A stretch of DNA of 19,352 nt from Candidatus Tenderia sp. (GCA_031416075.1 JANOSY010000028.1:1-19352); one strand, 5' to 3'. Shown: positions 1,006 through 19,352, numbered from the stretch's first letter. Notes: generated from the sequence alone by a model not told the origin. Numbers and translations: made by a program.

Positions 1006-1092
1006 ATAAAGATGTGTAAAGGAAGGGATGTTGATGACGTTTTTCGTAGAGTTGGATTGTTGGGTGACTGGGAATCCGAGTGGGAAATCTAA
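1006..1092 (+). pseudogene. 3' fragment of a second Imm8-like immunity gene, truncated by the IS4 element
   Basis: Translates IKMCKGRDVDDVFRRVGLLGDWESEWEI*, versus IKMCKGRNVDDVYRRVGLLGDWESEWEI* at 12547-12633. 6 mismatches in 87 nt, 4 of them synonymous. Confidence 0.9.
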
Positions 1093-1119
1093 GGAACACG
1101 TCCGGGCGTCTTAGGGGGA
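1006..1119 (+). repeat. Inverted repeat, left copy (partner 12517-12633)
   Basis: Manual alignment to the reverse complement of 12517-12633: the imm8 3' end plus about 27 nt downstream (AACACGTCCGG...GCGT.TTAG.GGGA) with a 3-nt indel. Confidence 0.9.
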
Positions 1120-1883
1120 TGGGGCACCCATATCCACGAGCGCAATACGTACGGTTGGTCAGTTTTCCCTGTAAGTAATAGTTCAGCGACAAGATCTACT
1201 GAAAATATCAACGGTCCGGACGTTGATGCAATGATTTTGTAGGTATGTCCATACACTGTGGCCTCTTCACTGATCACAGAGTCTTTTTGTTCAGGCCCAT
1301 CTAATCGCAACAATCCCTTTAGCGCGTCCGTTGCATAACGCGAGTCAGGCTGCTCCAGAATGGAAAACAGCGTTATATGTGGTTGCAAGCTAACAAACTG
1401 CTCAATGGGCAGCTCCAGCGCCACTGACATATCTACATATGTCCCCCACCTAGCAGTGGCACTTGCTCGGCTTTCCCTGAGGCGTTCTATGACATGCCTA
1501 GCGGGTTCTCCCTCTAGGCGGCTCGTTATTAATTGTTCGAGCCGTACCGGGTCTGTTGAGTTGACATCAACCAATCCGCGCACGTCAGTCACACTGGCCT
1601 CAACTTCTGCTCCATCTATGGTGAGTTTTTCGGGGATTCCGGGAGAATTTAGCCAACGTGAGCGTCGCCCATGCTTGATGAGATCTAGCACTATCATCTC
1701 GACACTTGCCTCAAGCCGAGTCTCCAAGAGTGCCTTCTCTTCGAGCGCCGCAATCTCCACGACATTTCTCCAGGCTGTCGAGAGTGTTATAGCAACGAGC
1801 CCTGCCACTACCATCAGCAGCAGCAGGGCATGCAGCAATATAGCGCCCTTAATGTTAATGCTTGGGGGTAATGGGGCGTGCAC
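1089..1883 (-). CDS. gspK: T2SS minor pseudopilin GspK
   Basis: Class III signal KG|AILLHALLLLMVV lacking Glu+5 (typical of GspK), DVRGLVDVN motif (D..GxxDxN), LQPHITLFS. Last gene of the gsp operon. Confidence 0.85.
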   Translation of the reverse strand: MHAPLPPSINIKGAILLHALLLLMVVAGLVAITLSTAWRNVVEIAALEEKALLETRLEASVEMIVLDLIKHGRRSRWLNSPGIPEKLTIDGAEVEASVTDVRGLVDVNSTDPVRLEQLITSRLEGEPARHVIERLRESRASATARWGTYVDMSVALELPIEQFVSLQPHITLFSILEQPDSRYATDALKGLLRLDGPEQKDSVISEEATVYGHTYKIIASTSGPLIFSVDLVAELLLTGKTDQPYVLRSWIWVPHPPKTPGRVP

Positions 1884-3942
1884 GTTCCGCGGCTTTAGCG
1901 GCTGAATCCATGCCTTCGGCTAGGGCATCGACTACCGCCTGTGTTTCGTCTTGGTTTTTCATAACATGTGGCACCAGCAGTATGATGAGCTCAGATCTGC
2001 GCGTATCTGAAGTGTTGGTGCGAAATATATTACCAATGATCGGAATATCTTTTAGAAATGGGATACCACTAGTTCCCTTACTTCCGTTTTCTCTTATTAA
2101 ACCGCCGAGTGCTACTGTGTTCCCGTCCTTGGTGGAAACCACTGTCTGAATCCGCCGACGTTGGATCGTCGGAGAATCAATGCCCGATGACTTTGTTGGG
2201 GTAACGTCGCTAACCTCCTGTGTGATTAATAGGGTCACATTTCCATTTTCACTTATCCGCGGTGTCACTTCGAGAATGACACCGGTATCTCTCATTTGAA
2301 TCGAATTTACCACGGGTGCCCCCGGGGTACTGGTTGACTGAGATATCTGCGTAACCACCGGCACCTGATCTCCAACCTGTAGACTGGCCTTTTGATTATT
2401 GAGTACTGACAATTTTGGCGAAGATAGTACGCGCACATCCGTTTTTTCGGCAAGAGCATTCAACACCAAACGCGCATCAGCGAGCCCAGAGTAAGCATAA
2501 GAGAATCCTGGAAACTGGGAAGCTGCTCCTCCTGAGTCTTGTGAACTGAGAGTGACCTTGTTTTTTCCAGAATCATAGAACCATTGCACACCGTAACGCA
2601 GGCTATCATTAAGGGAAACCTCCGCCAAGATAGCCTCGATCATGACTTGGCGCGGAAATATATCAATAATCTTCAAGGCATCTTTAATCACACTGAATTT
2701 TTCTTCTTCTCCGTAAAAGATAATAGAGTTAGTGTCCTCTATCGCCACCAAACTACTGGCATCAGTAGGAGTTGCTGGGGCCAGTGACGAAACCACTTCA
2801 GCTGGAAAAGCCGGAAGTGATTCTATTTCTGTTCTTGGTGCGGTGTTTTTTTCAGCCACGATGCCTTCTAAAACTTGGCGTAGCGCAATCACGAGATCTT
2901 TTGCAACACCATGCTGGACGTTGTATACAAACAGTCGTTTCCCAGTTGCTTTTGTTTTATCCAGCCGACGTATCCAGTCCTCTGCATTTTCGAGGTCTGC
3001 TCGATCATCGGCCACTCCTAGAATCGTTTTGATACGTGGGATGGGAATGAGTCGCACACGCCCGTCCATAAAATTCATGGGTGGCTGAAAAACCTGTTTT
3101 AACTCCGCCACCAGTTGTTCGGCATCGAGCTGTTCCAAGTGGTAAACTGCGAGGCTCTTGCCTTCAAGCCAGTTTTTATCGAAGTTATCAACAGCTTGCC
3201 GAACTGATGCGCGTTCCTGACTAGTGCCTGTAACAACAAGAAGCCGATACTGCTCATTTGCCTGCAATATGGTTTCCTTCGGAACAAACGATTCCAAAAT
3301 TCTCAGCATCTCGGTGGCATCAATATAAGTCAGGGGAAAAATCTCGATGGCGTAACCGGGACGAATGACCCCGGTAGGGGTAACCACACTAGTCCCCTTT
3401 ACAAACGTCGATGCTAACTCTTTTGAAACCACCTGGTGCACATCATTTTCAGAAATAATGGCAATCGATAGCGAATTAAGTGCTGTTTCCAAGGCAGAAA
3501 ATAATGCATCTTGATCGACGGGCTTCCCTGTACGAAGCGTAACGCGACCTTGAATATCCGGTTTCACAATATAATTCAGTTTGAGAATGTCTCCCATCAC
3601 TGCATCGACCACTCCTTTTATTTCCGCATCTTGAAAATTCAGATCATATTTTTTCCCTTCAGCAATTTTTGTTACGCCAGCGGCTTCCCCCCCTCCGTTA
3701 GTTGGCAAATATTCGGTTTGTTCTGATGCTGGTCGTTTCGCAATTGAAGTTGATCCAAGGTATTCCACTCGCGGCTTTTGCTCAGGTACTGCCTCTTTGT
3801 CTGGGTCAGCAGTAGACTCGTCAACGCCATTGGTATTTCCATGGGACCGCCAGCCGGCCCCAGATTGGGGAGACAGCTGTATGCCAGATGAACTGCATGC
3901 AGACAGGCAAAACAATATTAATAAATAAGAGAGAGATTTCAT
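1855..3942 (-). CDS. gspD: T2SS secretin GspD with lipoprotein signal (XpsD-like)
   Basis: Lipobox LSA|C, N0 domain (LNFQDAEIKGVVDAVMGDILKLNY), N-domain repeats, secretin motifs QVMIEAILAEV, VLSSPKLSVLNNQKASLQVGDQVP, GIPFLKDIPIIGNIF. Confidence 0.97.
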   Translation of the reverse strand: MKSLSYLLILFCLSACSSSGIQLSPQSGAGWRSHGNTNGVDESTADPDKEAVPEQKPRVEYLGSTSIAKRPASEQTEYLPTNGGGEAAGVTKIAEGKKYDLNFQDAEIKGVVDAVMGDILKLNYIVKPDIQGRVTLRTGKPVDQDALFSALETALNSLSIAIISENDVHQVVSKELASTFVKGTSVVTPTGVIRPGYAIEIFPLTYIDATEMLRILESFVPKETILQANEQYRLLVVTGTSQERASVRQAVDNFDKNWLEGKSLAVYHLEQLDAEQLVAELKQVFQPPMNFMDGRVRLIPIPRIKTILGVADDRADLENAEDWIRRLDKTKATGKRLFVYNVQHGVAKDLVIALRQVLEGIVAEKNTAPRTEIESLPAFPAEVVSSLAPATPTDASSLVAIEDTNSIIFYGEEEKFSVIKDALKIIDIFPRQVMIEAILAEVSLNDSLRYGVQWFYDSGKNKVTLSSQDSGGAASQFPGFSYAYSGLADARLVLNALAEKTDVRVLSSPKLSVLNNQKASLQVGDQVPVVTQISQSTSTPGAPVVNSIQMRDTGVILEVTPRISENGNVTLLITQEVSDVTPTKSSGIDSPTIQRRRIQTVVSTKDGNTVALGGLIRENGSKGTSGIPFLKDIPIIGNIFRTNTSDTRRSELIILLVPHVMKNQDETQAVVDALAEGMDSAAKAAERARPITPKH

Positions 3943-3963
3943 ACGATCAGAGGAGGTAAAAAA

Positions 3964-4488
3964 TCATTTGAAGATAGTCGATGTTGCGACGCTCGCATTA
4001 GGCAGGTGAATTTGTATATCAATTTTAGACTCCAGATGATGTAGGGTCGCATCTTTCGCGCCAATGCGAATAACACGCCAGCCTTCGAAATTACCACCTT
4101 TGGCCAATAGTTGCCGACTCGCGCCACCATTACTTTCGAGCAATGCCCAACTTTGACCATCCTCATCCCTGAGAATACCAGACAGGGTGGGTGATAATGG
4201 GGCTGGAATGGGCTGAACTTCAATCTCATTCTTCGCTCCAGTAGCAGAGGTTGTATTGTCAAACTCAAGCGCTTGCCGGCTACGCCTGAATATTGGTTTG
4301 GACATAATCGCATTATCATCAATAGATGCCACTCTAGGCACGGTCAGCCGTGCCGCTTCTCCAAGCTTAGGCGGCGGAACATTAACGTCAATCTTGTGTG
4401 ACAGGATCATATAGGACACAAGCCCTCCCCCCAATAGCACCACCGCATTGAGAACAACCAACAGGACTGTGCGAGAGACGAGTTTCAT
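3964..4488 (-). CDS. T2SS GspC/XpsN-like inner-membrane protein
   Basis: N-terminal TM helix, PIFRRSRQ motif, C-terminal LSGIL...ALL...EGWRVIRIG HR-like domain. Lies between gspM and gspD as in xps operons. Confidence 0.7.
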   Translation of the reverse strand: MKLVSRTVLLVVLNAVVLLGGGLVSYMILSHKIDVNVPPPKLGEAARLTVPRVASIDDNAIMSKPIFRRSRQALEFDNTTSATGAKNEIEVQPIPAPLSPTLSGILRDEDGQSWALLESNGGASRQLLAKGGNFEGWRVIRIGAKDATLHHLESKIDIQIHLPNASVATSTIFK

Positions 4489-5081
4489 GGCGTTGATTGC
4501 ATCTGTTGTGCTTGTGCTGTGACCGTCCCGAAACTCGATAAACGCATTTCCACGGAGAGCAATGGTCCGGCAGGGTTGTCTTGTCCCGTCTGCGTGGAAT
4601 CAGCTGAACGAACAACCAAGCGCTCAATCACAATAATCGGCTCAGAACGTTCAATTTGCGTAAGTAATGTATAGAAGCTCGCCTCCGATCCAGAGCCTGT
4701 CACATCCAGGGAAACTCTTGTGAGGCTACCCAGCTGGGCTACTGGAGCCGATCGCATTTGATCGAGATTGAATTGGGTCTCGACAAAGGTCTGATTGACG
4801 ATCTCCTGTAAACGGGCTTCTCCAATCGAAGCCGCACCGACCCACATCAACACTGGCGCCAAGGATTTCTCCTCGACCTCGACTTCTGTCGCTAATACCC
4901 CGCGACTGGCAGCCTCACGTTGCTTTGCTTGCACGAGGTCGAAACGGGCGTCATAAAGTTGTTCAACAGCGTCACGTCCCAACACAAACATCGACTGGAA
5001 CAAACCGCCGAGGATGAATAGGGATAAAATAAGCAAGGCCAGCGCCACCAACTGTCTGATACGTGGACTCAGCGCATGCAT
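4485..5081 (-). CDS. gspM: T2SS protein GspM
   Basis: SPRIRQLVALALL TM helix, coiled coil, C-terminal LLTQIERSEPIIVIERLVVR ferredoxin-like motif. Follows gspL with 1-nt overlap. Confidence 0.85.
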   Translation of the reverse strand: MHALSPRIRQLVALALLILSLFILGGLFQSMFVLGRDAVEQLYDARFDLVQAKQREAASRGVLATEVEVEEKSLAPVLMWVGAASIGEARLQEIVNQTFVETQFNLDQMRSAPVAQLGSLTRVSLDVTGSGSEASFYTLLTQIERSEPIIVIERLVVRSADSTQTGQDNPAGPLLSVEMRLSSFGTVTAQAQQMQSTP

Positions 5082-6190
5082 TAGTTTCGCGCTCCAGCAA
5101 TAACGGCGCTAATTTCAAATTGTGGTGGCCCACCCGGATTAACAGCACTCGCGACTACATCAAGCTTGGCATTGGCAAGCAAGTTGCCTTTCTTGAGTTG
5201 TCGTACAGCCGCTGACGGATTAATTGCCTGACCTGCCAGAGAAACTTTTCCATTCGCATATTCCAGCCTGTTCACCCACGCATCAGATGGTAAATGGCTG
5301 GCCGCCTCGTTTATAAGGCTGGTCACCCGAAAGGACGGCAATTGCCCCGCCAACTCCTGGCGGACGGTTTGAACGTGTGATTGTCGTGCCTCCAGCTCGG
5401 TGTGCTTTTTATCCGGGGTATTCAACGTAAAGATCTGACTGCGCGTATCCCGTTCCAACCATTTTGCGGTCAGAATCGTTACAGGAAAATACACCGTGAA
5501 AACAACCACCGCCATGACCAGCAAATAGAGATGCAAGCGTTTTTTCGCTTGTGCCGCTTTCTCCCTTTCTGAAGTATGAAACACATAATCGAGACCTTGT
5601 GAGCCGGGTAATGCATAACCCACCTCATTAACCGATATATCCCATTTGCCAAAGGTGGTTACCATCTCCGCCACAGCCTCCTTGCGAGAGATCACCACAT
5701 TAAGCCGAATATATTCCGGGGATGAAGCATCCTTTCTGGGCCTGACGGCGAAAAAAACATGGGAAGGATCGATGGGCGACTCTGTCAGTAGCCTGTAAGA
5801 CACCGCTTGTCTCAGTTCGCTACGGGCCGCTGTGGGCAACTCATATTCCAGTGGGAGAATGTCTTCTTCCGCCATGGAAACATGAAGCGAGCGTCCTATG
5901 CAGAGCGTCTTCAGCCTTGAGGCAGAGGACTCCAATTGATCCAAGCCGGGAAGATCGACAGTGGCCGGTACATTTGCAGCGGATGATTTATTGTTTGATC
6001 TATCCAGCAATAGCAACGAACATTGTTGCTTGCCAACGCGTAACAAAGCCGGAGGGCTCTTAAACGAATCAAGGCGTCCCAACCAGGGAAACATTGAAGA
6101 GAGTTCCGAAAACCACCAAGACAGGGCTTGCACCGCAAGGTCGCTCGCTTGGGCCAAAAACATACGGCTATTCTTCAAGATGTCCGGCAT
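5081..6190 (-). CDS. gspL: T2SS protein GspL (PilN-domain)
   Basis: LSWWFSEL motif, LPTAARSELRQAVSY..ESP cytoplasmic motif, single TM helix, periplasmic LPSDAWVNRLEY...LAGQA PilN-like domain. Confidence 0.85.
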   Translation of the reverse strand: MPDILKNSRMFLAQASDLAVQALSWWFSELSSMFPWLGRLDSFKSPPALLRVGKQQCSLLLLDRSNNKSSAANVPATVDLPGLDQLESSASRLKTLCIGRSLHVSMAEEDILPLEYELPTAARSELRQAVSYRLLTESPIDPSHVFFAVRPRKDASSPEYIRLNVVISRKEAVAEMVTTFGKWDISVNEVGYALPGSQGLDYVFHTSEREKAAQAKKRLHLYLLVMAVVVFTVYFPVTILTAKWLERDTRSQIFTLNTPDKKHTELEARQSHVQTVRQELAGQLPSFRVTSLINEAASHLPSDAWVNRLEYANGKVSLAGQAINPSAAVRQLKKGNLLANAKLDVVASAVNPGGPPQFEISAVIAGARN

Positions 6191-6816
6191 GTCAGGCTGG
6201 TCCAGTCAAGAATACATTCCCCCGGAACGATGCTACGGGGCCGGACCGCAATCCAGAATGGCGGCTTTTTCCTGCTCGTATACACCCCATGCAGTTCGAC
6301 GAGTTCCGGCGCTACCGCTACTTTCTCCCAGTGACTTTGGGGCTGGTCGTCCAGCGGGCCAAAATATTCGAAGCGCAGGCTCTCTAACCCCTGGAGGAGT
6401 ATCCAACGGTCGCGCAAAGGTGAGGGCGTCGAGTCGGATCCCGGGTTGATTGGATTGATGGACAACACGAGATTGAAGGAGCCATCAGATTGGCGTTCTG
6501 TTGCCAATTTGGCCCTCATGCGCCCCAGCGCGAAAGCAGATTGCGGCGGCATCACGAACATCTCCATTCCTGCTTCAGTCCCTCTTAAACCACCCTCTGC
6601 TTGATTTGGCCCTGCCGCTATACCCGCCTTGAGTGTTCGTGTGATCGCTATATGGGCCAAAGTCTCAATACCAAGCTCTTTATCGGCTGCGGTTGAACGT
6701 TCCCATCCTTCACGAACAGTGATGAGAATCTGCGACAGGCTTGCCAGGAGTAGCGCGCCTACCGCAATCGAAATGAGCACCTCAATCAAACTGAAACCAA
6801 GCTCCGGTTTGCTCAT
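6175..6816 (-). CDS. gspJ: T2SS minor pseudopilin GspJ
   Basis: G|FSLIEVLISIAV class III signal, LRFEYFG and PELVEL C-terminal motifs, size and gene order. Confidence 0.85.
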   Translation of the reverse strand: MSKPELGFSLIEVLISIAVGALLLASLSQILITVREGWERSTAADKELGIETLAHIAITRTLKAGIAAGPNQAEGGLRGTEAGMEMFVMPPQSAFALGRMRAKLATERQSDGSFNLVLSINPINPGSDSTPSPLRDRWILLQGLESLRFEYFGPLDDQPQSHWEKVAVAPELVELHGVYTSRKKPPFWIAVRPRSIVPGECILDWTSLTCRTS

Positions 6817-7220
6817 AGTGATCTCACGCGCTTCAGGTGGAATGCGGTAAGACTGATCATGGGAGAAGTGCCTGGATCGCGTAGAACCTCGACCCCTATT
6901 CGCTCCATCATTAAAGAGGCAGCGCCCCCATTTTTGTCAGCGGGTGTGCCATCGCTCACGGAAACCCGCCAATGCAGACCATTCATGATTCCACTTCGAG
7001 GCAAGTCGTCTCGTCCTGTCAATGCCATAAACTCCTCAAGTTTCGAATGCGCCAGCCCAATGGCTGACATGTGCAAACGTGCATCGGATTGTCGCGATAA
7101 ACTGTCAGATATCGCTGGCAGTCCTATACTCACAACCATTACCGAAATGGCGAGGGCTACCAGCACTTCTATCAAAGAGAAGCCGACCATTTGTCGAAGA
7201 GCCATAGGGTGAAGACCCAT
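6813..7220 (-). CDS. gspI: T2SS minor pseudopilin GspI
   Basis: G|FSLIEVLVALAI class III signal, AHSKLEE motif, 135 aa, position between gspH and gspJ. Confidence 0.85.
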   Translation of the reverse strand: MGLHPMALRQMVGFSLIEVLVALAISVMVVSIGLPAISDSLSRQSDARLHMSAIGLAHSKLEEFMALTGRDDLPRSGIMNGLHWRVSVSDGTPADKNGGAASLMMERIGVEVLRDPGTSPMISLTAFHLKRVRSL

Positions 7221-7226
7221 CTCGCC

Positions 7227-7670
7227 TTACTCCCAACTCATTTGGCCAGTGAACCAGTCCACATCTATATGCTGCTGACGCTCTAATTCGAAGCTGATGC
7301 CCCCTCCCGAAGACGACCCGTCAGGATAGAATACGATGGCATCCTCGCCTGATGAAGATCTGATAGCACTGTTACACTGAAACCTGATCTCTGAAACATT
7401 TTTATGATCCAACAGGTCAGCCAGCTTTTCTTCCAGGGCACGGCAGCCAACTGAGACAGCCGCCCCGGACTGGAAACTTTGCTGTCGTGCATCCTGCAAT
7501 ACTTTGCTCAAGCCAGCACTCAACATAGTGGGACTCTGTCTCCAGTTCGGCAAGGCCTGCGCCCCGATCCAAGCGAGCGCGCCCAGCAATGCCACCACAA
7601 TCAACAGTTCCAGCAAGGAAAAACCACCTTCAACGCGCTTTCCCGGTCCCGACATCGGTGTTTTCGCCAT
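7227..7670 (-). CDS. gspH: T2SS minor pseudopilin GspH (start ATG 7670 or 7655)
   Basis: G|FSLLELLIVVAL class III signal; IVFYPDGSSSGG and VDWFTG motifs typical of GspH/XpsH. Confidence 0.88.
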   Translation of the reverse strand: MAKTPMSGPGKRVEGGFSLLELLIVVALLGALAWIGAQALPNWRQSPTMLSAGLSKVLQDARQQSFQSGAAVSVGCRALEEKLADLLDHKNVSEIRFQCNSAIRSSSGEDAIVFYPDGSSSGGGISFELERQQHIDVDWFTGQMSWE

Positions 7671-8076
7671 CCCCCCCCTCTCGATTGTCTGCACCAAGCG
7701 AATATACCTCCACTACCGTTTCACGACCAGGTATCCGGTAGCGATAGGGGTTTCCCCAAGGGTCAATAAGGTGCTGTGGCTTGCGCACATAAGGTCCGCG
7801 CCAATTACGAACGTCAGACGGTGCCTTCCACAAGGCATTCGGACCCTGCTCCATTGTTGGATAGGCGCCAACATCTATCTTGTAGTAATTCAGTGAAGTC
7901 ATGAGGGTTTCAACCTGCAGCGCGGCAGTGTCCGACTTTGCCCCGGAAAACATATTCATGACCTGAGGTGCGACCACTGCGACAAGCAGCCCCATGATCA
8001 CGATGACCACCAGTAGTTCAAGCAGCGTGAAACCTGAAGCCCTTGTTGCGCAATGAACCTGTGAATGTAAATGCAT
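7630..8076 (-). CDS. gspG: T2SS major pseudopilin GspG
   Basis: G|FTLLELLVVIVIMGLL, YKIDVGAYPT, WRGPY, DPWGNPYRYRIPG, YSLGADNREGGDG. Confidence 0.97.
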   Translation of the reverse strand: MHLHSQVHCATRASGFTLLELLVVIVIMGLLVAVVAPQVMNMFSGAKSDTAALQVETLMTSLNYYKIDVGAYPTMEQGPNALWKAPSDVRNWRGPYVRKPQHLIDPWGNPYRYRIPGRETVVEVYSLGADNREGGDGENTDVGTGKAR

Positions 8077-8104
8077 AATTGTAACTGTTCCAAAAAAGGC
8101 GAGT

Positions 8105-11103: not shown

Positions 11104-11138
11104 AGTTGTGTCGTCGTTACCAATGTTACGGGCGTTGC

Positions 11139-11348: not shown

Positions 11349-11383
11349 ATAAATTTATCCAGTCTGAAATGTCAACCTACCAA

Positions 11384-11645
11384 TGATCTTGTAAGCCTTG
11401 TCCGGACAAAATATCACGCAATATTTTGGTTTTGTTCTTCATAGCCCAAGGGCGTCTGATAGCCGATAGTTGAGTGATACCTCTGACGGTTATAAAACAC
11501 CTCGATGTACTCAAAGATCTCCTGTTTGGCCTCATCTCGGGTCTGGTAGTGCCAGGGATGAATCAGTTCGGTCTTCAGCGTATGGAAGAAGCTCTCAGCA
11601 GGAGCATTGTCCCAACAATTGCCTCTGCGACTCATGCTGCAAATG
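11384..11645 (-). mobile_element. IS3-family remnant (OrfB integrase C-terminus and right inverted repeat)
   Basis: [24 protein letters not shown]...[20 protein letters not shown] (11414-11635). Terminal TGATCTTGTAAGCCTTGTCCGGAC begins at 11384. Confidence 0.92.
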
Positions 11646-11892
11646 GAGCGTCCCGATATCCATATCCCCTGACTAGCCCGTGGCCCTGTGGCTGCACACT
11701 TAAACGCGCACTACATCCCTATCGACTGGCATTGAAACGCCACGCCGCTATTCATTTTTATTACGTTGCGCCGGTTACCGTGTAGCTGGTACGGTTGCCC
11801 GCCGCATCGTATACATAGGCGATCACCACCCCGTTGCCGTAGGTAGCTGTGGAGAGTCGGCCCAGCGTGTCGTAGGTGTAGGCTACTGAACC
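11646..11892 (-). repeat. Diverged direct copy of 19003-19295 (mini-YD mature region, intergenic leader, first 6 rhs codons)
   Basis: Manual alignment. Encodes GSVAYTYDTLGRLSTATYGNGVVIAYVYDAAGNRTSYTVTGAT*, then the leader, then ATG at 11663 giving MDIGTL (versus MDIRKL). Confidence 0.93.
11761..11892 (-). pseudogene. Second mini-YD gene lacking its signal peptide
   Basis: Open frame of 43 codons, 39 of the first 42 residues identical to the mature 19161-19352 product. No ATG or signal peptide upstream; only an in-frame TTG at 11904. Confidence 0.8.
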
Positions 11893-11910
11893 AAGTAATG
11901 CCAATGTTCG

Positions 11911-12471
11911 TCACATTCTAAGTGAGGCCTCATCCTCTTCTGTCCAGCTCTCTGGGGGCCAAACACCTCTTTCTTGCATCGATTTTTTTCGAACACCGGG
12001 TGTGTTCTCTTGATTCGTATATAAGCGTATGTTTGGGTTAAGTTCACCAATTTCGAACCATCGTTCGACTTGCCAAAACAGGTGTATTAGATGCGCCACG
12101 GCCTTTTCCACAGAATATTTCGTAGTGCGAAATCCAAATAAAGCATTAGGACTGAACCAAAACATGGAATATGGCAAACTGTAAAGTCTGCCATGTTGCA
12201 CAAGATGAGCTATTTGCACATTTTTCCTACTCACGAATCGACCGTAGGCGTCGATAATTCCATTTGCTGGCACAACTCCAAAATTCAGGACAAATTTCGG
12301 TCTGTTGTGCTTGTCAAATTGCACTTCTATTATTTCATCACGCTCTTCACCTGACCGCCGGTAGGGATAGAATTCGTTTCGTTTTTTCTCAGGCTGGAAT
12401 CCCAGCCCGAGTACATGCATTCCAAAATCATCAACAATGGCTTCTTTTAATAATGACGTAAGTTGCTCCAT
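11911..12471 (-). CDS. Hypothetical protein, putative orphan immunity protein (DUF4304-like)
   Basis: Low GC, directly downstream of the toxin/Imm8 pair. LGF...YRR...IIEVQFDK...FVLNFGV pattern resembles DUF4304-type proteins (from memory, not searched). Confidence 0.55.
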   Translation of the reverse strand: MEQLTSLLKEAIVDDFGMHVLGLGFQPEKKRNEFYPYRRSGEERDEIIEVQFDKHNRPKFVLNFGVVPANGIIDAYGRFVSRKNVQIAHLVQHGRLYSLPYSMFWFSPNALFGFRTTKYSVEKAVAHLIHLFWQVERWFEIGELNPNIRLYTNQENTPGVRKKSMQERGVWPPESWTEEDEASLRM

Positions 12472-12516
12472 CAATGCTTACCTATCAGGCGGTCTATTTT
12501 AGTGCCGAACCCACAC

Positions 12517-12633
12517 TCCCACTAAAACGCCGTCCGGACGTGTTTCTTAGATTTCCCATTCAGATTCCCAGTCACCCAACAACCCAACTCTGCGATAAAC
12601 GTCATCAACATTCCTTCCTTTACACATCTTTAT
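12517..12633 (-). repeat. Inverted repeat, right copy (partner 1006-1119)
   Basis: See the left copy; covers the imm8 3' end and downstream flank. Confidence 0.9.
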
Positions 12634-12915
12634 ATAAGATTCAATGTACCCAATTATTTTTTCGTAAGAATAAATACCTACAATAATTTTCCCATGTCCA
12701 ATTACACAATCATTCTCTCTTAGTTCTTCAATAATCCAACTGGGAGTACAAGCTTCAATATCGAAACGCTCAGAACCGTCGCGCCCCCCGATTCCAACGA
12801 ACACTTCCAAATCAATCGAAAATTTTAAAGGGTCAGCAGGTCTATATTTTTCAATTTCCGCATTCTCCGCACCAGAATCTATTAACGTTATGTGGCGTAT
12901 TACTGCTTGCAACAT
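12547..12915 (-). CDS. Imm8-family immunity protein, cognate to the Rhs C-terminal toxin
   Basis: Likely start ATG 12915 (AAGGA 6 nt upstream), 122 aa. Motifs YRPADP..F, IG..G.E.F.I.ACTPSW, GHGKIIV, C.G and C-terminal WExE. Immediately follows the toxin; low GC. Confidence 0.85.
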   Translation of the reverse strand: MLQAVIRHITLIDSGAENAEIEKYRPADPLKFSIDLEVFVGIGGRDGSERFDIEACTPSWIIEELRENDCVIGHGKIIVGIYSYEKIIGYIESYIKMCKGRNVDDVYRRVGLLGDWESEWEI

Positions 12916-12978
12916 ATCCATTCCTTGTGAATTATTTTTCATACCCAGCCTGCAACCGATAAACATTGAATTTGTTGG

Positions 12979-15900
12979 CTACTTACCCACAAAAGAACCG
13001 ACAGTCCCACCGATTGTGCCGCCAAGAATACCCTCTCCAACCTGTGTGCCTAGCGGCGTAACATTGGCATGAATATTCGTGATAATGTTTGGCTTACCAG
13101 ATAATTTAGGAATACTAGATTCAAAGTTTGCCTGTGTGCTTCCTGTTTTCTTAAGCGCTGGTGCCCGATATGAGTACTGCCCCCCTTGACTTGTGAATGA
13201 TCGGCCAAGTTGATTGGCCTCCGCCTTTGTGACATTTTGACTGATAGCGCTAGTAAACTTTGGCTCAGCACCCGATGTCACTAGGTTACGTCCAGTGTTA
13301 GTAAGCTTATTTATCTCACCAAGCTTGTTCACGGTATTTATTTTTGACGCAATTCCCGCCCCGACAGCCCCCAGCCCAGCGGAAACCCCAACACTTGTCC
13401 AGCTTACATCCGAGAAACTGCCTCCATTCGAGTACAACTGGATTCCAAGGTCAAGACCTCCGCCAATAAACGCGCCTATAACGCACGATGGGCAATTTCC
13501 CGTCGGATCGGTCAAATTCACCGGATCATTCCCCACATACCCATACAGGTTCATATCATCCGCATAGCCGATAGGATCGGTCTGCAGGAACCTGCCCAGC
13601 GCCGGGGAGTAGATGCGGGCCTTATAGTAGTAGAGGTTGAGCTGGCCCAAGAGCTGCTGGCCGGTGTAGCGAAAGCGCACGCCGGTGGTGACGTTGGGTT
13701 CGCCGTAGGGGCCGTAGGTGTAGGTGGCGGTGCTGGTGCCTGCGCTGTTGGCGGTGGCGACGATACTGCCGAGGTGGTCGGCGTAGAACCAGCTTTTGTT
13801 GGTGGTGGTGCTGCCTTCGTACCAGACCAGCGGTTCGTCGATGCCGGGGCCGTGGACGTAGCGGCGCAGGACGTTGCCGACGCTGTCATATTCGGCGGCC
13901 AGATCGACGCCGTCGTAGAGCAGGTTGGTGGTGGACCCGCCGATGACGGTCTGGCGCAGCCGCCCTTCGGCGTCATAGGCGAGGGTGGCGGTGAGGCCGG
14001 TCTTGGTGGCGCTCTTGAGGCGGTTGTCGGTGTCGTAGCCGTAGCTCCAGACGCCGTCGCCGCTGAGGTTGCCGTTGGTGTCGTAGCCGAGGGTGGCCCC
14101 GGCGGCGGCGGTGTATTGGTTGAGGCCGTTGGCGGTGTAGCTGCGGGCACCGTTGGTGTAGCCGGTCCATTGGTAGAGGTCGTTGTTCCAGCTGTGGCCG
14201 GTGATCTCCTGGGCCTGGTTGCGGCTGTAGGTGTGGGTGACGTCCTGGGCGGTGCCGGTGAGGTTGTGGCCGAGGCTGGCCAGGGCGCTCTGGGTGGTGT
14301 AGCCGTAGCCGGTGGTGGTCAGGCCGTTGCCGCGGGTGACGGTGGTGCGCCGCGAGAGGTCGTCGTAGGCGTAGCTGGCCAGGGTGGTGGCGCCCAGTTC
14401 GAGGAGGGCGGTCGGACGGTTGAGGGCGTCGTAGGTGGTGGTGACGTAGAAGCTGGTTTCGGGCCAGGTCTGGCGGGTGCGGTTGCCGGCCGGGTCGTAC
14501 TGGTAGGCCATGGTCTTGCCGCCGGCGCTGGTGCTGGTGAGCCGCCCGGCGTTGTCCCAGGCGTAGCTGATGCCATAGCTGGCGTTGGCGTAGTTGGCGG
14601 CGGTGCGGCGGCCGAGCAGGTCGTAGCTGAAGCTGACGTTGTCGGCTACGGTTGGGTAGCTGCGGGTCAGGAGGCGGTTGAGGTTGTCGTAGGCGAGCGT
14701 GACGGTCTGGCCGTTGCGCTTCCTCACGCTGGTGACGTTGCCGTTGGCGTCAAAGCCGTACTGCTCGTAGTCGGTGGCAGAGGAGCTGTTGACGGTAGTC
14801 GGGTTTGGATAAAGGGTTTTGAGTTTGCGATCATGACCGTCGTACTGGTAGGTGGTCAGGTTGTTTTTGGCGTCCTTGACGGTGGCGGGCAGGCCGTTGA
14901 CGGTGTAGGTGTAGGTGGCGTAGGTCTGCGCCAGCGTTGTACCGACGGCGCGTTTGACGGACTGGACGCTGTCGTCGGCGTTGTAGACGGTCTCGCTGAT
15001 GCGGTTGCCCCCCTCCCCTGCGGTGAGGTTTTCGGTCACCCGCAACGGCCGGTCGAGGTCGTCGTAGAGATAGTCGGCCACCGCCACTGGGGCGGCGGCG
15101 GTTGGGCAGGTGGTGTCGAGCGCGGTCTGTCCGGGACCCCAGGCCTTGAGCAGTTTGCCGCTGTTGGTATAGGTGCTGCAGGAGACCAGCCATTGGGTGC
15201 CGATCTGGGCGGCGCTGCGTATTACCCGACCGTCGGCGTCATAGGCCTGGCGGGTGAGTTTGCCCAAAGCATTGGTGGTCTGGGTCACGCGGCGTTCGGC
15301 GTCGTAGGCGTAGGTGACGGTATCGGTGACGTCGCTGCGCGGGCCGTTGAGCTGGGTGAGGTTGCCAAAACCGTCATAGGTGAAACTGGTGGTGAGGTTG
15401 AGCGTGCCAGTGCCGGAATCGACCACGGCAGTCGCGGGCACATACTTGTTGGCCGTGTTGTAGCTGGTGGTGGTGACCACGGTGGCGGTGGCGCTGCTCT
15501 TGCTGGTAACGCTGCTCTGCAGGTAGAAGGTGGGGAAACCTGCCGGTGTGTAGGCGATGTAGCCATAGGTGGTGGTGGGCTGTACGCCCGCGGCATCCGC
15601 TGGGGCAAGCACCGTCAGGGGGTTGCCCTGGGCGGTATAGGTAAAGGTGGTCAGCTTGCCGCGTGGGTCGGTGACGCTGGCCACTTTGTTGAAGGTTGAT
15701 TCATAGGTGGTATTAGTGACCAGGTTGACCAGGCCTGAACCGGCCTTGGGGATCTGGGTGATGGTCTTGACGTTGTGGGTGCAGCGCTTCTGGGCGGCGC
15801 AGGGGGCGTCATCATAGACGTAGGTGGCGCTGTTGCCCTCGGGCAGCACGGTGCTTACCGGCCGTGACTGGCCATCATAGGTGGTGGTCGTGGCGCGGCC

Positions 15901-18900
15901 CAGCGGGTCGATGCGCTTGGTGACCTTGCCCAGGCCATTGAGGTAGGAGACCCGGCTGATGTTGCCTGGCCCCACTTCCTCGGAGCGCCAACCCGCAAAG
16001 TAATAGGTGTAGAGCTTGCCGTTGGCGTTGGTCTGGGTCTGCACCCGGCCCAGGGTGTCGTAGACGTTGGTGAGGAAGGCCACCGCTGGCGTGCTCGGGT
16101 AGTAGAGCTTGGTCATGCGTCCGGGCAGGTCGTACTGGAAGGTGGTGTTCCTGGCCGTGGCGTCGGTGAAGGTGGCGAGGTTGCCGCTGGCGTCATAGAG
16201 ATACTTGACGTTGCGGGCGCCGTCGGCGACCTGGGTCACCCGTCCCGTGGTGTTGGTGAGTGTCAGGCTGCGGCCCAGGCTGTTGGCGACATGAGTGAGG
16301 TCGTTGCCAGTGTAGGTGAAGTTGGCCTGCACGCCGCTGGGGTGCAGATAGGTGGCGATCTTGCCGGCGGTGTTGAAGTTGAGCCTGGCCTTGTTCAGCG
16401 TCTCGTAGCTGTAGCTGGTGTCGGCATTTTTGATGAGCTTGGCGGCATTGCCGGGCGGGGCGTTGTAGGTGCCGTCGGGCAGCTTGACGAACACTTCGCC
16501 GTTGAGGCCCTGACGCACGATGACGGTGTTGCTGAGGAGCTGGTCGCCGAACCAGCGCTGGCCGAGGGTGGCGATGACCATCTTGTCCAGGGGTTTGGCC
16601 ACATCGCTCAACAGATCAAATGAGACCATCTTCTCGACGATGCTGGTGACGGCGTCCAGCGCCGAGTCTTCACCCAGCCCCTGGAAGCCGTCCGAGCCCA
16701 CCGTGGTGCTGGCGGCGAGGTTGTGTGTCCAGCCCTTGCCCAGCGGGCCGCTCTGGGTACGCAGCCCTGAACTATAGAGCTTCTCGAAGTTCAGGCTCAG
16801 GGGGAAGGCGCCCACGCCCGTGGTGATGTCGCTGCGGGCGTAGAGGTAGTGGCCATTGGCCATGTCGATGGGGTCGCCGAAGGTTTGATACGGGAACGTC
16901 TGGATCAGCTCGTTGGGGCTGATGGAGAAATTCAGGCCGTTATCGTCAAATATCGTGGGCGCCAAGATCTCAGAGGCAAAACCACCCGCCAGACCACCGC
17001 CAATGATGGCGCCGATGCTGGTGCTGGTGCCGCTGACCAGGATATTGAAGTAGCCGGCGCCACTCCAGCTGTTCTCGGTGATATTGCAGCGCGCGGGCAG
17101 GATCAGGCGACGACCGGCATTGACCGCCGCCTGGAAGGTCGGTTGCCAAGCGGCGCAGGAGACCAGGTTGGGTTGCACGGCAGTGGCATAATTTGCCAAC
17201 TTAGCATCGTAGAAACGCTCATTGTTAATCGCGGCGATGTCAATCAGCTTCACGGTGGAGACTGCGCTCACCCCGGCAATCTGCTGCACCGCCGTGGACT
17301 CGAAGATACTCGAGTGCATAGCAGCGCTGAAGAAGGCGGCTGACTCTTTGGCGGTGTCAGCGCTCTGACTGACCACGCTCAGCATGTTGCCCGGCAGGTC
17401 GACGTAGGGAGAGGTGTTGTAGCCAGCGATGCCGATCTGGTGGTGGAACAGGGTGTTGGTCTTGGCCAGACGATCATTAATATAGTCGGCCTGGTTGACC
17501 TGGGCGATCCAGGTGGCGGAGAGCACCGCCAGGGTCGAACCCAGCACCGCTTCGCTGGTGTCGGCATTGCCGGCGGCCTTGGCATTATCCAGCTGCGTGC
17601 GGTACTGCTCGACAAGCCCACGGCCCGCGGTCCCCCAGCCATTGCCGATCAGGAAGGTGCCACCCGCCTTGATGGACTGGGTGAAGTTCTGGTTGGCATA
17701 GGTCGAGGCGTAGGCACCATGGGTCACAGTGAAGGTGACGTTGGCGTTAGTACCGGGAGTGATTGCCGTGCCAATGGCCTGACTCACGCCATCAAGCATC
17801 AGTACCGGCTGGTTGGAGGCGTTGTAGGTGATGCTCAACCGCTTGCCGTAGAGCGCGTCCGAGGTGTAGGTCGTGTCGATCCCCTGGTACTGCATGCGCA
17901 GGGTGGGCCGGTAGTTGGCCGGGATGTCCGTGGTCCACTCGGTCAGCGCCACCGCGGTGTCCTGGTAGGGCAATACGGTCTGGCGCAGGTTGGCGCCGCT
18001 GTGCGGGGTGATGGTCATGCCGCCCACCACGTCTTCCAGCGTCCCGGCAGGTTTGTTGCTGCGCAGGTAGTTGGTGAGGTTGGTGGCGTAGCTGGTGAGG
18101 TTGGTGCGGATATTGGGGCGGTTGATCCCCTGCACGTAGTCGGCGGTGACCGTGGTGCCGGTCTTGGCCGCCGTCAGGTAGCTGGCGGCGTTGTAGCCGG
18201 TGGCTGCCGCCAGATCGATGCCGCTCTTGAGGGTATGGGGTTTGTAGCTCGGGTCAAAATAGTAGGCGATGCCGCCGATAGTGGCCTTCACCCAGACATG
18301 GTCGATCTTCATGCTCACCAGCGCCGCGGTGGAGCCGGGGCAGCTACCCGCCGCCGTCGCAGTCACCGAAGCGATGGGGATCTGACCTTGTGATAACAGG
18401 TTGATCACCGCGCAGACATTGCTGGTATCAACCCCCAGCCAGGTGTTGACCTGGGCCGCCGTCAGGTTGATCCGCCCCTTGACGTAGCTGGCGGTGTAAC
18501 CCGCCTGGCGCAGCAGCGACACCATCAGCGCCGCCTGGTCGTAGGCGGTGCCCTGATTGTCCAGAATCGCGCCTACCGCCCCCTTTTGTACCCCCCACAC
18601 CGGGTAGTACTCGATGTTGTTGCGCACATATTCGTAGATGAGGTCAGGGTTATTCTTCAGCGCCCGCGCCAGTTCGGCGATGGAGGCCGGGCCGACGGGG
18701 GCGGCGGTGGCGAGTGTCTGGAGAGTGCCGTCGGTGCTGCCCTGGTTCAGGTTGGCAGGCACAGGGCGCGAGCGGATCGCCCGTTCGGATTCTGCCGGGG
18801 TCACCGGCGGCATGATGGCGCGGTTGACGCCGGGTTGGGGACTCTCGGGGGCAACCGGCTGCTTGGCGCCGAGGGCGGACGCTTGGGATTGGGCCGCCTG

Positions 18901-19020
18901 GGCGGGCTGCACCGCCAGCTGACCACCACCAAAACGGATGTTACCGTCTGCGGCATAGACAACTGACGCACCGACAGCCAACACCACCCCTGCCATGCGG
19001 CTGAGTTTCCTGATATCCAT
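12979..19020 (-). CDS. Rhs/YD-repeat polymorphic toxin: signal peptide, inactive transglutaminase-like domain, DUF6531-like domain, YD repeats, Rhs core, C-terminal toxin
   Basis: MDIRKLSRMAGVVLAVGASVVYA|A signal; GDPIDMANG...PLGKGWTHN; many YD/GR repeats; core RFRYTGQ...YYYKARIYSPALGRFLQTDPIG...NLYGYVGNDPVNLTDPTG. AGGGGA RBS upstream. Confidence 0.96.
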   Translation of the reverse strand: MDIRKLSRMAGVVLAVGASVVYAADGNIRFGGGQLAVQPAQAAQSQASALGAKQPVAPESPQPGVNRAIMPPVTPAESERAIRSRPVPANLNQGSTDGTLQTLATAAPVGPASIAELARALKNNPDLIYEYVRNNIEYYPVWGVQKGAVGAILDNQGTAYDQAALMVSLLRQAGYTASYVKGRINLTAAQVNTWLGVDTSNVCAVINLLSQGQIPIASVTATAAGSCPGSTAALVSMKIDHVWVKATIGGIAYYFDPSYKPHTLKSGIDLAAATGYNAASYLTAAKTGTTVTADYVQGINRPNIRTNLTSYATNLTNYLRSNKPAGTLEDVVGGMTITPHSGANLRQTVLPYQDTAVALTEWTTDIPANYRPTLRMQYQGIDTTYTSDALYGKRLSITYNASNQPVLMLDGVSQAIGTAITPGTNANVTFTVTHGAYASTYANQNFTQSIKAGGTFLIGNGWGTAGRGLVEQYRTQLDNAKAAGNADTSEAVLGSTLAVLSATWIAQVNQADYINDRLAKTNTLFHHQIGIAGYNTSPYVDLPGNMLSVVSQSADTAKESAAFFSAAMHSSIFESTAVQQIAGVSAVSTVKLIDIAAINNERFYDAKLANYATAVQPNLVSCAAWQPTFQAAVNAGRRLILPARCNITENSWSGAGYFNILVSGTSTSIGAIIGGGLAGGFASEILAPTIFDDNGLNFSISPNELIQTFPYQTFGDPIDMANGHYLYARSDITTGVGAFPLSLNFEKLYSSGLRTQSGPLGKGWTHNLAASTTVGSDGFQGLGEDSALDAVTSIVEKMVSFDLLSDVAKPLDKMVIATLGQRWFGDQLLSNTVIVRQGLNGEVFVKLPDGTYNAPPGNAAKLIKNADTSYSYETLNKARLNFNTAGKIATYLHPSGVQANFTYTGNDLTHVANSLGRSLTLTNTTGRVTQVADGARNVKYLYDASGNLATFTDATARNTTFQYDLPGRMTKLYYPSTPAVAFLTNVYDTLGRVQTQTNANGKLYTYYFAGWRSEEVGPGNISRVSYLNGLGKVTKRIDPLGRATTTTYDGQSRPVSTVLPEGNSATYVYDDAPCAAQKRCTHNVKTITQIPKAGSGLVNLVTNTTYESTFNKVASVTDPRGKLTTFTYTAQGNPLTVLAPADAAGVQPTTTYGYIAYTPAGFPTFYLQSSVTSKSSATATVVTTTSYNTANKYVPATAVVDSGTGTLNLTTSFTYDGFGNLTQLNGPRSDVTDTVTYAYDAERRVTQTTNALGKLTRQAYDADGRVIRSAAQIGTQWLVSCSTYTNSGKLLKAWGPGQTALDTTCPTAAAPVAVADYLYDDLDRPLRVTENLTAGEGGNRISETVYNADDSVQSVKRAVGTTLAQTYATYTYTVNGLPATVKDAKNNLTTYQYDGHDRKLKTLYPNPTTVNSSSATDYEQYGFDANGNVTSVRKRNGQTVTLAYDNLNRLLTRSYPTVADNVSFSYDLLGRRTAANYANASYGISYAWDNAGRLTSTSAGGKTMAYQYDPAGNRTRQTWPETSFYVTTTYDALNRPTALLELGATTLASYAYDDLSRRTTVTRGNGLTTTGYGYTTQSALASLGHNLTGTAQDVTHTYSRNQAQEITGHSWNNDLYQWTGYTNGARSYTANGLNQYTAAAGATLGYDTNGNLSGDGVWSYGYDTDNRLKSATKTGLTATLAYDAEGRLRQTVIGGSTTNLLYDGVDLAAEYDSVGNVLRRYVHGPGIDEPLVWYEGSTTTNKSWFYADHLGSIVATANSAGTSTATYTYGPYGEPNVTTGVRFRYTGQQLLGQLNLYYYKARIYSPALGRFLQTDPIGYADDMNLYGYVGNDPVNLTDPTGNCPSCVIGAFIGGGLDLGIQLYSNGGSFSDVSWTSVGVSAGLGAVGAGIASKINTVNKLGEINKLTNTGRNLVTSGAEPKFTSAISQNVTKAEANQLGRSFTSQGGQYSYRAPALKKTGSTQANFESSIPKLSGKPNIITNIHANVTPLGTQVGEGILGGTIGGTVGSFVGK

Positions 19021-19086
19021 ATCCGTTTCCCCTGACTAGCCCGCAGACCCTGTGGCTGCACACTTAAATGTCCACTACATCCCTAT

Positions 19087-19155
19087 CGGCTGGCGTTGAA
19101 ACGCCAAGCCGCTGTTCATTTTTAGTACGTGATTGCTGCGGCGTCTCCACGCCGC
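19087..19155. promoter_or_regulatory. Two GC-rich stem-loops between the mini-YD gene and rhs
   Basis: GCGGCGT-CTCC-ACGCCGC (19138-19155) and CGGC-TGGCGT-TGAA-ACGCCA-A-GCCG (19087-19111). Neither has a U-tract in the sense direction. Confidence 0.45.
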
Positions 19156-19160
19156 GCGGT

Positions 19161-19352
19161 TTAAATCGGTGCGCCGGTTACCGTGTAACTGGTACGGTTG
19201 CCCGCCGCATCGTATACATAGGTGATCACCACCCCATTGCCATAACTGGCCGTGGCGAGCCGACCCAGAGTGTCGTAGGTGTAGGCCACGGAACCTGCCT
19301 GGATAGCGCCAGACAACAGGGTCAGTACCGCCCCCAGCATCAGTCGCTTCAT
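19161..19352 (-). CDS. Small secreted YD/RHS-repeat protein (signal peptide plus two YD units)
   Basis: MKRLMLGAVLTLLSGAIQA|GSV signal, then YTYDTLGRL...Y and YVYDAAGNRT. The paralog at 11761-11892 differs mostly at synonymous sites, which supports coding status. The ATG is at the window edge. Confidence 0.9.
   Translation of the reverse strand: MKRLMLGAVLTLLSGAIQAGSVAYTYDTLGRLATASYGNGVVITYVYDAAGNRTSYTVTGAPI

Follow-up and report, generated by a model that had tools for sequence, protein, structure and literature searches.

An Rhs toxin module and an accessory type II secretion operon in Candidatus Tenderia sp.: conserved linkage and probable toxin export

The toxin module and the secretion operon

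The stretch of DNA analysed here (the window) is 19,352 bp in length and is the entire contig C28 of Candidatus Tenderia sp. (GCA_031416075.1, JANOSY010000028.1:1-19352), from an assembly of 3.49 Mb in 95 contigs. It contains a gene module for a polymorphic toxin of the Rhs family and an operon for a type II secretion system (T2SS). All real genes of the window are on the minus strand. Their order on that strand is miniYD, Rhs, Imm8, DUF4304, a decayed second rhs head, a fragment of an IS3-family insertion sequence (IS), a 397-nt spacer and 11 gsp genes. The T2SS belongs to a clade that accompanies Rhs wherever enough flanking sequence is visible, and from this linkage the T2SS probably exports the neighbouring Rhs protein. 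The genes of the two modules are as follows, with lengths in amino acids (aa).

19161..19352, minus strand: miniYD, 63 aa, read directly (RHS_repeat E 1.5e-9)
12979..19020, minus strand: Rhs toxin, 2013 aa, with Transglut_core, DUF6531, RHS repeats and Rhs_assc_core
12547..12966, minus strand: Imm8-family immunity gene, 12 nt past the rhs stop (Pfam Imm8 71.5 bits)
11911..12474, minus strand: DUF4304 protein (Pfam)
9313..11016, minus strand: GspE-type ATPase with an MshEN-like N-domain (T2SSE 435 bits, over the cut-off; TIGR02533 553 bits, below the cut-off of 630)
8105..9328, minus strand: GspF inner-membrane platform protein (T2SSF in two copies, 147 bits, over the cut-off; NCBIfam equivalog 240, below 424)
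7630..8076, minus strand: GspG major pseudopilin (TIGR01710 143 bits, cut-off 88.85)
7227..7697, minus strand: H-like pseudopilin (XpsH E 8.6e-14)
6813..7220, minus strand: I-like pseudopilin, a weak assignment (gspI E 4.9e-5)
6175..6816, minus strand: J-like pseudopilin, a weak assignment (N_methyl motif only; T2SSJ E 0.23)
5081..6190, minus strand: GspL-like protein with a PilN-type C-domain (PilN E 1.4e-4, 22.2 against a cut-off of 22.8; gspL E 4.2e-4)
4485..5081, minus strand: GspM of the XpsM or 'b' type (T2SSM_b 50.6 bits, over the cut-off; NF040576 58.1 against 60)
3964..4488, minus strand: short GspC-like protein without a PDZ domain (GspC_delta E 1.6e-4)
1855..3942, minus strand: GspD secretin (TIGR02517 411 bits, cut-off 351; Pfam Secretin, Secretin_N and gspD_N0 matches)
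1089..1883, minus strand: GspK, 264 aa, last gene of the operon, assigned by fold (no Pfam match of its own)

The Rhs protein consists of a signal peptide, an N-domain of about 680 aa with a transglutaminase/cysteine-protease-like core, DUF6531, a YD shell, the Rhs core and a C-terminal toxin of 167 aa. It scores 137.5 bits with RHS_repeat and 77 bits with TIGR03696, which has a cut-off of 32.5. The Rhs core terminates in DPVNLTDPTG (residues 1838-1851), which contains the DPxG motif. The N-terminus, MDIRKLSRMAGVVLAVGASVVYA/ADG, reads by eye as a Sec signal peptide. PAAR, VgrG and Eag families are absent from Rhs and from all 20 open reading frames (ORFs) of the window that were scanned. The original prediction, made from the DNA of the window, had described an Rhs protein with a signal peptide and without these three elements, and it holds on both counts. 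Neither a lipobox nor a sorting signal, as a sign of surface anchoring, is seen in the Rhs sequence.

An AlphaFold model of Rhs residues 24-700, made with a 33-sequence alignment, has a predicted local distance difference test (pLDDT) score of 79. Comparison of this N-domain model by VIA-align gives only transglutaminase/cysteine-protease-like cores, i.e., TglA (Z 8.6), 3kd4 (Z 8.5) and PeiP, PeiW and LapG (Z 7.4-7.7). Foldseek gives no match with the same model at E <= 0.001. At 677 residues the model may exceed what a fold search handles. In the transglutaminase-like core (approximately residues 156-260), His241 and Asp256 are invariant in the 33 sequences and Cys203 and Cys227 likewise. The expected position of the catalytic Cys is G-T-A in nearly all 33. 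As read from the motif, the domain may be a non-catalytic binding module.

The C-terminal toxin, the last 167 residues, is 17% glycine and has three hydrophobic Gly-zipper-like stretches. Pfam gives no match for it at E values up to 5, and the named Atlas clusters give none above 0.81. That the toxin is membrane-active is only a guess from its composition. DNA homology with G003, a genome of the same genus, ends at position 13482, and G003 has both another tail and another immunity gene; a 295-aa leucine-rich-repeat-like protein comes after the tail. The toxin is termed polymorphic because the homology stops at this point.

The miniYD gene is the first gene of the Rhs module, and its start coincides with the last base of the contig. 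Behind a signal-like N-terminus, the protein has two YD repeats within about 43 aa. Upstream of Rhs it is kept in G003 and in loci L016, L017, L106, L107 and L141, and in every full locus of the family that was inspected. The DUF4304 protein is probably encoded by an orphan immunity gene, as its homologues in L016 (46% identity) and Methylocaldum G042 (59% identity) come after an Rhs C-terminus. A 641-aa open frame lies antisense to rhs at 13774-15699 on the plus strand and is also present in the rhs genes of relatives. It is read here as a shadow ORF of the GC-rich repeat region and not as a gene.

The eleven gsp genes occupy 11016..1089 in the order E, F, G, H, I, J, L, M, C, D, K, with gaps of -68 to +28 nt. 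Every one of them is an open frame, matched over its full length by a G003 counterpart with 88-99% aa identity. An 11-gene operon without frameshifts, co-oriented with the toxin genes and downstream of them, had been proposed originally and is what is found. GspE and GspF belong to their families but are divergent, with NCBIfam equivalog scores below the cut-offs. Residues 14-142 of GspE are of the MshEN type, with a weak match to an MshE-related motif that binds cyclic di-GMP (25.5 bits, cut-off 38), and the protein scores nearly equally as GspE and as PilB. Position and size fit for GspL, GspM and GspC, for which profile scores are marginal. GspK was identified by fold: a profile search of its sequence against PDB gave nothing under E 0.7. 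Its AlphaFold2 model (pLDDT 80.5) has XcpX/GspK chains as all six best Foldseek matches (E 1.5e-5 to 2e-2, template modelling scores 0.41-0.51), and one of eight homologues matches Pfam T2SSK_1st (1.3e-10).

A regular expression detects a lipobox, LSAC, at residues 13-16 of GspD, which may be a self-piloting liposecretin. The same expression matched three rhizobial secretins and, in the GspD tree described below, two of three secretins from the large clade that is poor in Rhs. Cys-containing lipobox variants, seen by eye only, are present in GspD of G042, L107, L111 and L141. The canonical GspD encoded on contig C5 of the Tenderia assembly has no lipobox in the same scan. This C5 T2SS is of a type conserved through the family, and there is a third T2SS-like cluster on C45. 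The T2SS of the window is an accessory system beside the canonical one. The prepilin peptidase is encoded outside the window by the single Peptidase_A24 gene of the genome (C26:12984-13313). The original prediction had also drawn attention to the lack of a hydrolase substrate gene in the window. None is present, which says little on its own, as the window is the whole contig.

Four further features lie between and around the two modules.

11656..11892, minus strand: decayed second rhs head, consisting of a miniYD copy that lacks its signal peptide (aa identity 93% across 42 aa), a duplicate of the miniYD-rhs spacer and the opening rhs codons (ATGGATATC)
11414..11635, minus strand: C-terminal fragment of an IS3-family transposase (rve_2 and NF033516 matches), which cuts the second rhs
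970..1119, plus strand: 3' remnant of a second imm8 (45 codons, 970..1089) with 30 nt downstream, 69% aa identity to the intact copy
120..~1005, minus strand: IS4-family transposase copy, repeated in the genome, which marks the contig end and truncates the imm8 remnant

An interval of about 2 kb, which the original prediction did not mention, separates the Rhs module from gspE. It contains the DUF4304 gene, the truncated second miniYD with its first rhs codons, and the IS3 fragment. A tandem rhs unit formerly stood directly upstream of gspE, and its head survives, cut by IS3. At the other end of the operon, a 117-nt inverted repeat (90% identity) pairs 1006-1119 on the plus strand with 12517-12633, and the two imm8 3' ends bracket DUF4304 and the gsp operon. 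The presence of imm8 sequence on both sides of the operon had been noted before. Two copies are indeed present, but the second is only a 45-codon, inverted, plus-strand remnant cut by IS4. As a sign of coupling between toxin and operon, the flanking imm8 sequence was rejected; it is a rearrangement scar with an inverted repeat, beside an IS4 copy. Inversion of the segment between the imm8 repeats would yield the convergent Rhs-imm/gspK-gspD layout of plasmid pUP202, described below.

In rhs the GC content is 0.62-0.66, compared with 0.41-0.48 near the immunity genes and 0.46-0.56 across the gsp operon. Assembly of reads from four DNA runs gave short contigs only. Pieces of equal depth, about 25 in X1, span 11790-13549 and 10010-11256, and loose ends or breaks are at 1005, 11604 and 11638. 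No listed piece from the four runs crosses the IS3 fragment, so that the Rhs-gsp junction is supported by the assembly itself and by synteny with G003. Among the sequencing runs listed, none of RNA contains the locus. A promoter and terminator scan of 10900-13100 was empty on the minus strand, and its overall count was no higher than in shuffled sequences. No tRNA gene that could form an island border is found in the window or in the G003 flanks.

Linkage of the T2SS clade to Rhs genes

The gsp region of G003 is 95% identical in nt sequence to that of the window. In this genome the Rhs-imm module ends 262 nt from gspE and no IS element is present. The flanks of the G003 locus, on a 244-kb contig (L013 8500-18200 and L014 16200-19111), encode TrfA, ParA, a resolvase, two ParE proteins, Phd and KfrA_N. 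Methylocaldum G042 has a GspD with 52-59% identity, encoded on a 247-kb replicon that also bears miniYD-Rhs at 72-74% identity. Eight rhs 3' fragments and a DUF4304 gene separate Rhs and gspE in this replicon, all co-oriented with gspE. The whole region from the main Rhs to gspE (G042:C1 218986-246764, past position 1 to about 9600) is approximately 37 kb of co-oriented orphan rhs 3' fragments and immunity genes. In the Methylomonas plasmid pUP202, the miniYD-Rhs-immunity genes are placed between gspE, which is divergent, and gspK-gspD, which is convergent.

A metagenome scan with the GspD alignment returned 80 loci, in which Rhs and miniYD were scored by tblastn. L103-105 have the same layout as Methylocaldum G042. 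In L107, Rhs and miniYD are divergent from gspE...D-K, and in L106 the order is gspD-K-miniYD, followed by the contig end. L141 has an rhs 3' end and a miniYD-like gene, then gspE...K. In L111, the next ORF after gspE...D-K has a match to the Rhs N-domain; no miniYD is found in the 166 nt between gspK and this ORF. The adjacency of Rhs or miniYD and gsp genes is kept across at least five gene arrangements that differ in order and strand.

ORFs were also clustered in 11 loci that represent the clade and its neighbours. All 11 gsp families are common to at least three of these loci. Antisense shadow ORFs aside, the only non-gsp families found in at least three loci are Rhs, miniYD and a ParE toxin (3 loci).

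A tree of GspD was made from 58 of the 109 loci with a GspD match. Apart from L106, which was also included, these had to reach 500 aa in GspD and 10 kb in locus length. IQ-TREE was used in 'quick' mode with LG+G4, and support values are from the Shimodaira-Hasegawa-like approximate likelihood ratio test (SH-aLRT) only. A locus was scored as Rhs-positive if the window Rhs or miniYD had a tblastn match of E < 1e-5 anywhere in the available locus. These scores come from one query, which very divergent YD proteins may escape, and flank lengths are uneven among loci. The distribution is as follows.

Core clade including the window (SH-aLRT 100): 12 rows, 9 Rhs-positive
Wider group including the core clade (SH-aLRT 84): 17 rows, 11 Rhs-positive
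Rhizobial plasmid clade: 3 rows, 2 Rhs-positive
All remaining rows: 38 rows, 2 Rhs-positive

The three negatives of the core clade, L108, L109 and L110, all have limited flanks from contig ends. Nothing is available upstream of gspD in L108; L109 begins at gspE and stops 1.4 kb past gspK; and in L110 the contig stops inside gspD, with 2.7 kb upstream of gspE. Scoring a tree of GspD orthologues for neighbouring Rhs and miniYD had been put forward in the original prediction, for which a lack of association between gsp and rhs would have been fatal. The tree gives the opposite result, with 9 of 12 rows positive in the window clade, its three negatives cut by contig ends, and 2 of 38 elsewhere. 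Wherever the flank is visible the clade is linked to Rhs, and the linkage is specific to the clade and resistant to rearrangement. In two of the Rhs-less loci an oxidoreductase gene adjoins the gsp genes: a flavin amine oxidase in L110 (299-2248, plus strand) and an FAD-dependent oxidoreductase in L100 (30347-31927, plus strand). From this position, these proteins may be alternative substrates of this type of T2SS.

The two genes are also present or absent jointly in the sampled genomes. Among 400 scored Gammaproteobacteria, a close GspD (at least 96%; next 40%) and a close Rhs N-domain (at least 94%; next 36%) are confined to G000 and G003. Neither was found in the three remaining genomes of the genus, which are 99, 84 and 95% complete. 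In the family of G042, this GspD type and Rhs type occur together in one of 64 genomes (G042) and neither is found elsewhere.

The Rhs family, defined by a signal peptide, the transglutaminase-like domain, DUF6531 and RHS repeats, is represented by at least 329 protein clusters at E <= 1e-10. Hosts include Methylomonas, Thauera, Zoogloea, Nitrosomonas, Massilia, Variovorax, Pseudomonas, Burkholderia and others. Many members bear differing C-terminal toxin families, with nuclease types among them (Pfam). In Variovorax paradoxus and Caballeronia SBC1, miniYD-Rhs is directly beside a different T2SS-like cluster. The replicons concerned (L054 17379-36000 in Variovorax and L055 5000-25600 in Caballeronia), which have this cluster together with miniYD-Rhs, are unannotated in PLSDB. 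The second cluster type combines gspG-F-E and a PilN-type gene with pseudopilins and a 935-aa secretin that has TPR and STN domains. The window GspD has 30-32% identity to the TPR/STN secretin, in the C-terminal domain only. This second secretin type is found in 138 plasmid records, of which 110 are Ralstonia megaplasmids, and in one of the latter (L192) two genes annotated as 'RHS repeat protein' are divergent from the GspD...gspG-F-E cluster.

The two Rhs-positive rhizobial plasmid T2SS loci have SpvB/FG-GAP/TcdB_mid/RHS proteins, which are similar to Tc BC components, with signal-like N-termini alongside. The genes for these proteins are at L058 30447-36985 and at L059 11846-19688 and 30723-37004; the Neorhizobium locus also has a separate transglutaminase-family protein. 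Five distant RHS proteins with a transglutaminase-like domain (G151, G343, G260, G359 and G406) have no gsp genes in the available flanks. With RHS identities of 24-27% they represent a different subfamily and therefore say little.

Export of the Rhs toxin and alternative explanations

The linkage in the preceding section suggests that the window is plasmid-type cargo in which a polymorphic Rhs toxin module is coupled to a complete accessory T2SS, and that the likeliest job of this T2SS is export of the neighbouring Rhs toxin. This explanation is considered probable, although well short of certain. The T2SS clade is always found with Rhs where enough flank can be seen, but Rhs often occurs without the T2SS. 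Such an asymmetry is expected if an accessory exporter is carried along with its substrate, as are Hxc with LapA and Txc with CbpE in P. aeruginosa (PMC6567927). In hosts that lack the T2SS type of the window, Rhs would rely on another T2SS-type machine.

The proposed mechanism has four steps. The N-termini of miniYD and Rhs suggest that Sec would take both proteins across the inner membrane. Rhs would then fold in the periplasm with its YD shell around the 167-aa toxin, in keeping with established knowledge of the family. In the third step, for which gene linkage is the evidence, the GspEFLMC platform and the GspG-K pseudopilus would push the shell through a putatively lipidated GspD, with pseudopilins matured by the single prepilin peptidase encoded elsewhere in the genome. 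Outside the cell Rhs would be a released or surface-held, bacteriocin-like toxin. The conserved N-domain would probably mediate binding or entry, and Imm8 would protect the producer.

There is a precedent for T2SS-dependent release of an Rhs protein. Bcn-A of Xanthomonas perforans is an RHS-family bacteriocin that is active in cell-free supernatant, and its activity is lost in an xpsD mutant (PMC7259588). It is the only experimental precedent found. By its description, Bcn-A is similar to the window Rhs in that it is an RHS/YD toxin with a downstream immunity gene, but it is 1398 aa in length and depends on the general Xps system with no dedicated neighbouring operon. Genetic linkage has been reported for Xanthomonas XRhs F VIII and Ralstonia RRhs F II, two Rhs families linked to gspG for which T2SS translocation was predicted, with secretion 'not functionally confirmed' (bioRxiv 10.1101/2025.05.08.652813). 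In linkage they resemble the window, in that Rhs is tied to a T2SS gene. In the accessible part of the preprint only gspG is named, within 5 kb upstream and 3 kb downstream, and neither a complete operon nor a T2SS clade defined by linkage is described. The cluster of these families is a different lineage, with the order G-F-E and a TPR and STN secretin, unlike that of the window. Full-text literature searches gave no clade of complete T2SS operons defined by an Rhs neighbour, no miniYD and no cases on methanotroph plasmids, and the supplementary synteny figures of the preprint may show more than gspG. The delivery route had been called poorly characterised at the outset. With the xpsD phenotype of Bcn-A (PMC7259588) and the gspG linkage (bioRxiv 10.1101/2025.05.08.652813), it is less so than was assumed.

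Accessory T2SSs with a single dedicated substrate are known from P. aeruginosa, i.e., Hxc with LapA and Txc, which is on a genomic island, with CbpE (PMC6567927); HxcQ is a liposecretin (PMC2996285). In these features they are similar to the window T2SS as second, horizontally acquired systems, and HxcQ has a lipobox, the motif also present in the window GspD. Their substrates are small enzymes or binding proteins, whereas the candidate in the window is a 2013-aa toxin shell. The TcB and TcC components of Tc toxins (Tc BC) are similar to the window Rhs in having a YD shell that encloses a toxic C-terminus. Unlike Tc BC, the window Rhs has no SpvB, FG-GAP or TcdB_mid domains, and there is no TcA-like gene.

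Several observations weigh against export of Rhs by the neighbouring T2SS. Dependence is one-sided, as this T2SS has a much narrower distribution than the Rhs family. The Rhs N-domain is present in 16 plasmid records, of which six were inspected; no gsp gene is found within 18-20 kb of Rhs on the B. contaminans, B. gladioli and Methylomonas DH-1 plasmids. The Zoogloea contig has no gsp genes in the available flanks of Rhs, and the assembly is without an orthologue (best GspD 30% and GspE 44% identity). L110, the deepest row of the core clade, has the flavin amine oxidase and not Rhs upstream of gspE. L114 and L115, on a neighbouring branch, show no Rhs within about 3 kb upstream of gspE or 8-10 kb beyond gspD. 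Independent positive lineages are few, approximately four in the core clade, where L103-105 repeat G042. All positive loci are mobile or of plasmid type, where rhs genes and IS elements pile up anyway. Co-transcription of rhs and gsp is unlikely in the window because of the scars of about 2 kb between them and the sharp difference in GC content. A folded shell of about 215 kDa would be an unusually large substrate for a T2SS. The genome also has a type VI secretion system (T6SS), with two TssC/VipB genes on contig C56.

One alternative is that the T2SS and Rhs are independent cargo on the same plasmids and islands, and that the T2SS exports some other protein encoded elsewhere. The nature of the carriers, i.e., pUP202, the 247-kb replicon of G042 and the plasmid backbone in G003, agrees with independent cargo, as do the IS3 and IS4 elements of the window, the many Rhs genes without this T2SS and the amine oxidase of L110 in the place that Rhs has in other loci. 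Against it, the adjacency outlasts at least five rearrangements of gene order and strand. The ParE toxin, in 3 of 11 loci, is the only other non-gsp family in common, and rows of other T2SS clades are Rhs-positive in just 2 of 38 cases. In addition, two further lineages of T2SS type adjoin genes for signal-bearing YD-shell proteins. Independent cargo is considered unlikely. The original prediction that the T2SS is specialised to export Rhs is retained in part: the clade linkage, with Rhs and miniYD as the only widely conserved non-gsp neighbours, speaks for it, but the Rhs family is independent of this T2SS.

A second alternative keeps a functional link but not the export of a free shell. The Rhs protein might be displayed on the surface for delivery by contact, or the T2SS might export miniYD or an accessory protein while Rhs leaves by the general T2SS, in vesicles or by lysis. 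The separate and strongly conserved miniYD peptide of 43 aa, exported to judge from its N-terminus, could be such a substrate, and its gene is directly upstream of gspE in L141 and, as a decayed copy, in the window. Many members of the family have nuclease-type C-terminal toxins, which need entry into the target cell. Lysis is the reported means of release for large Tc toxins of Yersinia entomophaga (PMC10847048). Display at the surface, however, is not indicated by any lipobox or sorting signal seen in Rhs. Bcn-A acts in cell-free supernatant in an xpsD-dependent manner (PMC7259588). An export role confined to miniYD also fits poorly with L111, where Rhs follows gspK and miniYD is missing from the intervening 166 nt. 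This second alternative has a rather low probability.

Most characterised proteobacterial Rhs toxins use T6SS. Rhs effectors delivered by T6SS, PAAR-Rhs proteins with Eag chaperones, share with the window Rhs the YD shell, the DPxG core, a polymorphic C-terminal toxin, a downstream immunity gene and orphan modules. A reading of the window Rhs as a conventional T6SS effector, with the T2SS beside it irrelevant, is very improbable in spite of the two TssC/VipB genes on C56, since Rhs has a Sec-type signal peptide and a conserved transglutaminase-like N-domain in place of PAAR, VgrG-binding or Eag families, none of which is found in Rhs or in the window, and the locus is of plasmid type and unlinked to the T6SS contig.

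Implications for Rhs toxins and T2SS lineages

Export of the window Rhs by its neighbouring T2SS can be placed in a wider context. Sec-exported YD-shell toxins, i.e., Rhs proteins with signal peptides and Tc-like BC fusions, might generally leave Gram-negative bacteria via T2SS-type machines that were recruited at least three times. The three proposed recruitments would be the Gsp-type clade of the window on plasmids of methanotrophs and other Gammaproteobacteria, the gspG-F-E/TPR-STN type in Burkholderiales and the type on rhizobial plasmids. The window would then represent a self-contained, transferable cassette of a toxin plus its outer-membrane exporter, and the only conserved cargo of the T2SS would be a 43-aa YD peptide and a shell of about 215 kDa. 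Any bacterium that received the plasmid would begin to make a contact-independent Rhs bacteriocin. This generalisation is tentative, and somewhat less than an even chance is given to it.

Rhs toxins of Gram-negative bacteria have been studied almost wholly as T6SS cargo, and the exit of the signal-peptide class has barely been tested. Existing evidence comes from one Xanthomonas mutant phenotype and from a single gspG linkage established bioinformatically. A T2SS lineage in which Rhs and a small YD partner are the only widely conserved neighbours makes the export question directly testable in culturable methanotrophs. If Rhs export by this T2SS is correct, the largest T2SS substrate known would become a shell of about 215 kDa. 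The extra T2SS copies without known substrates in some genomes would be explained, and Rhs warfare would have a defined branch that needs no cell contact.

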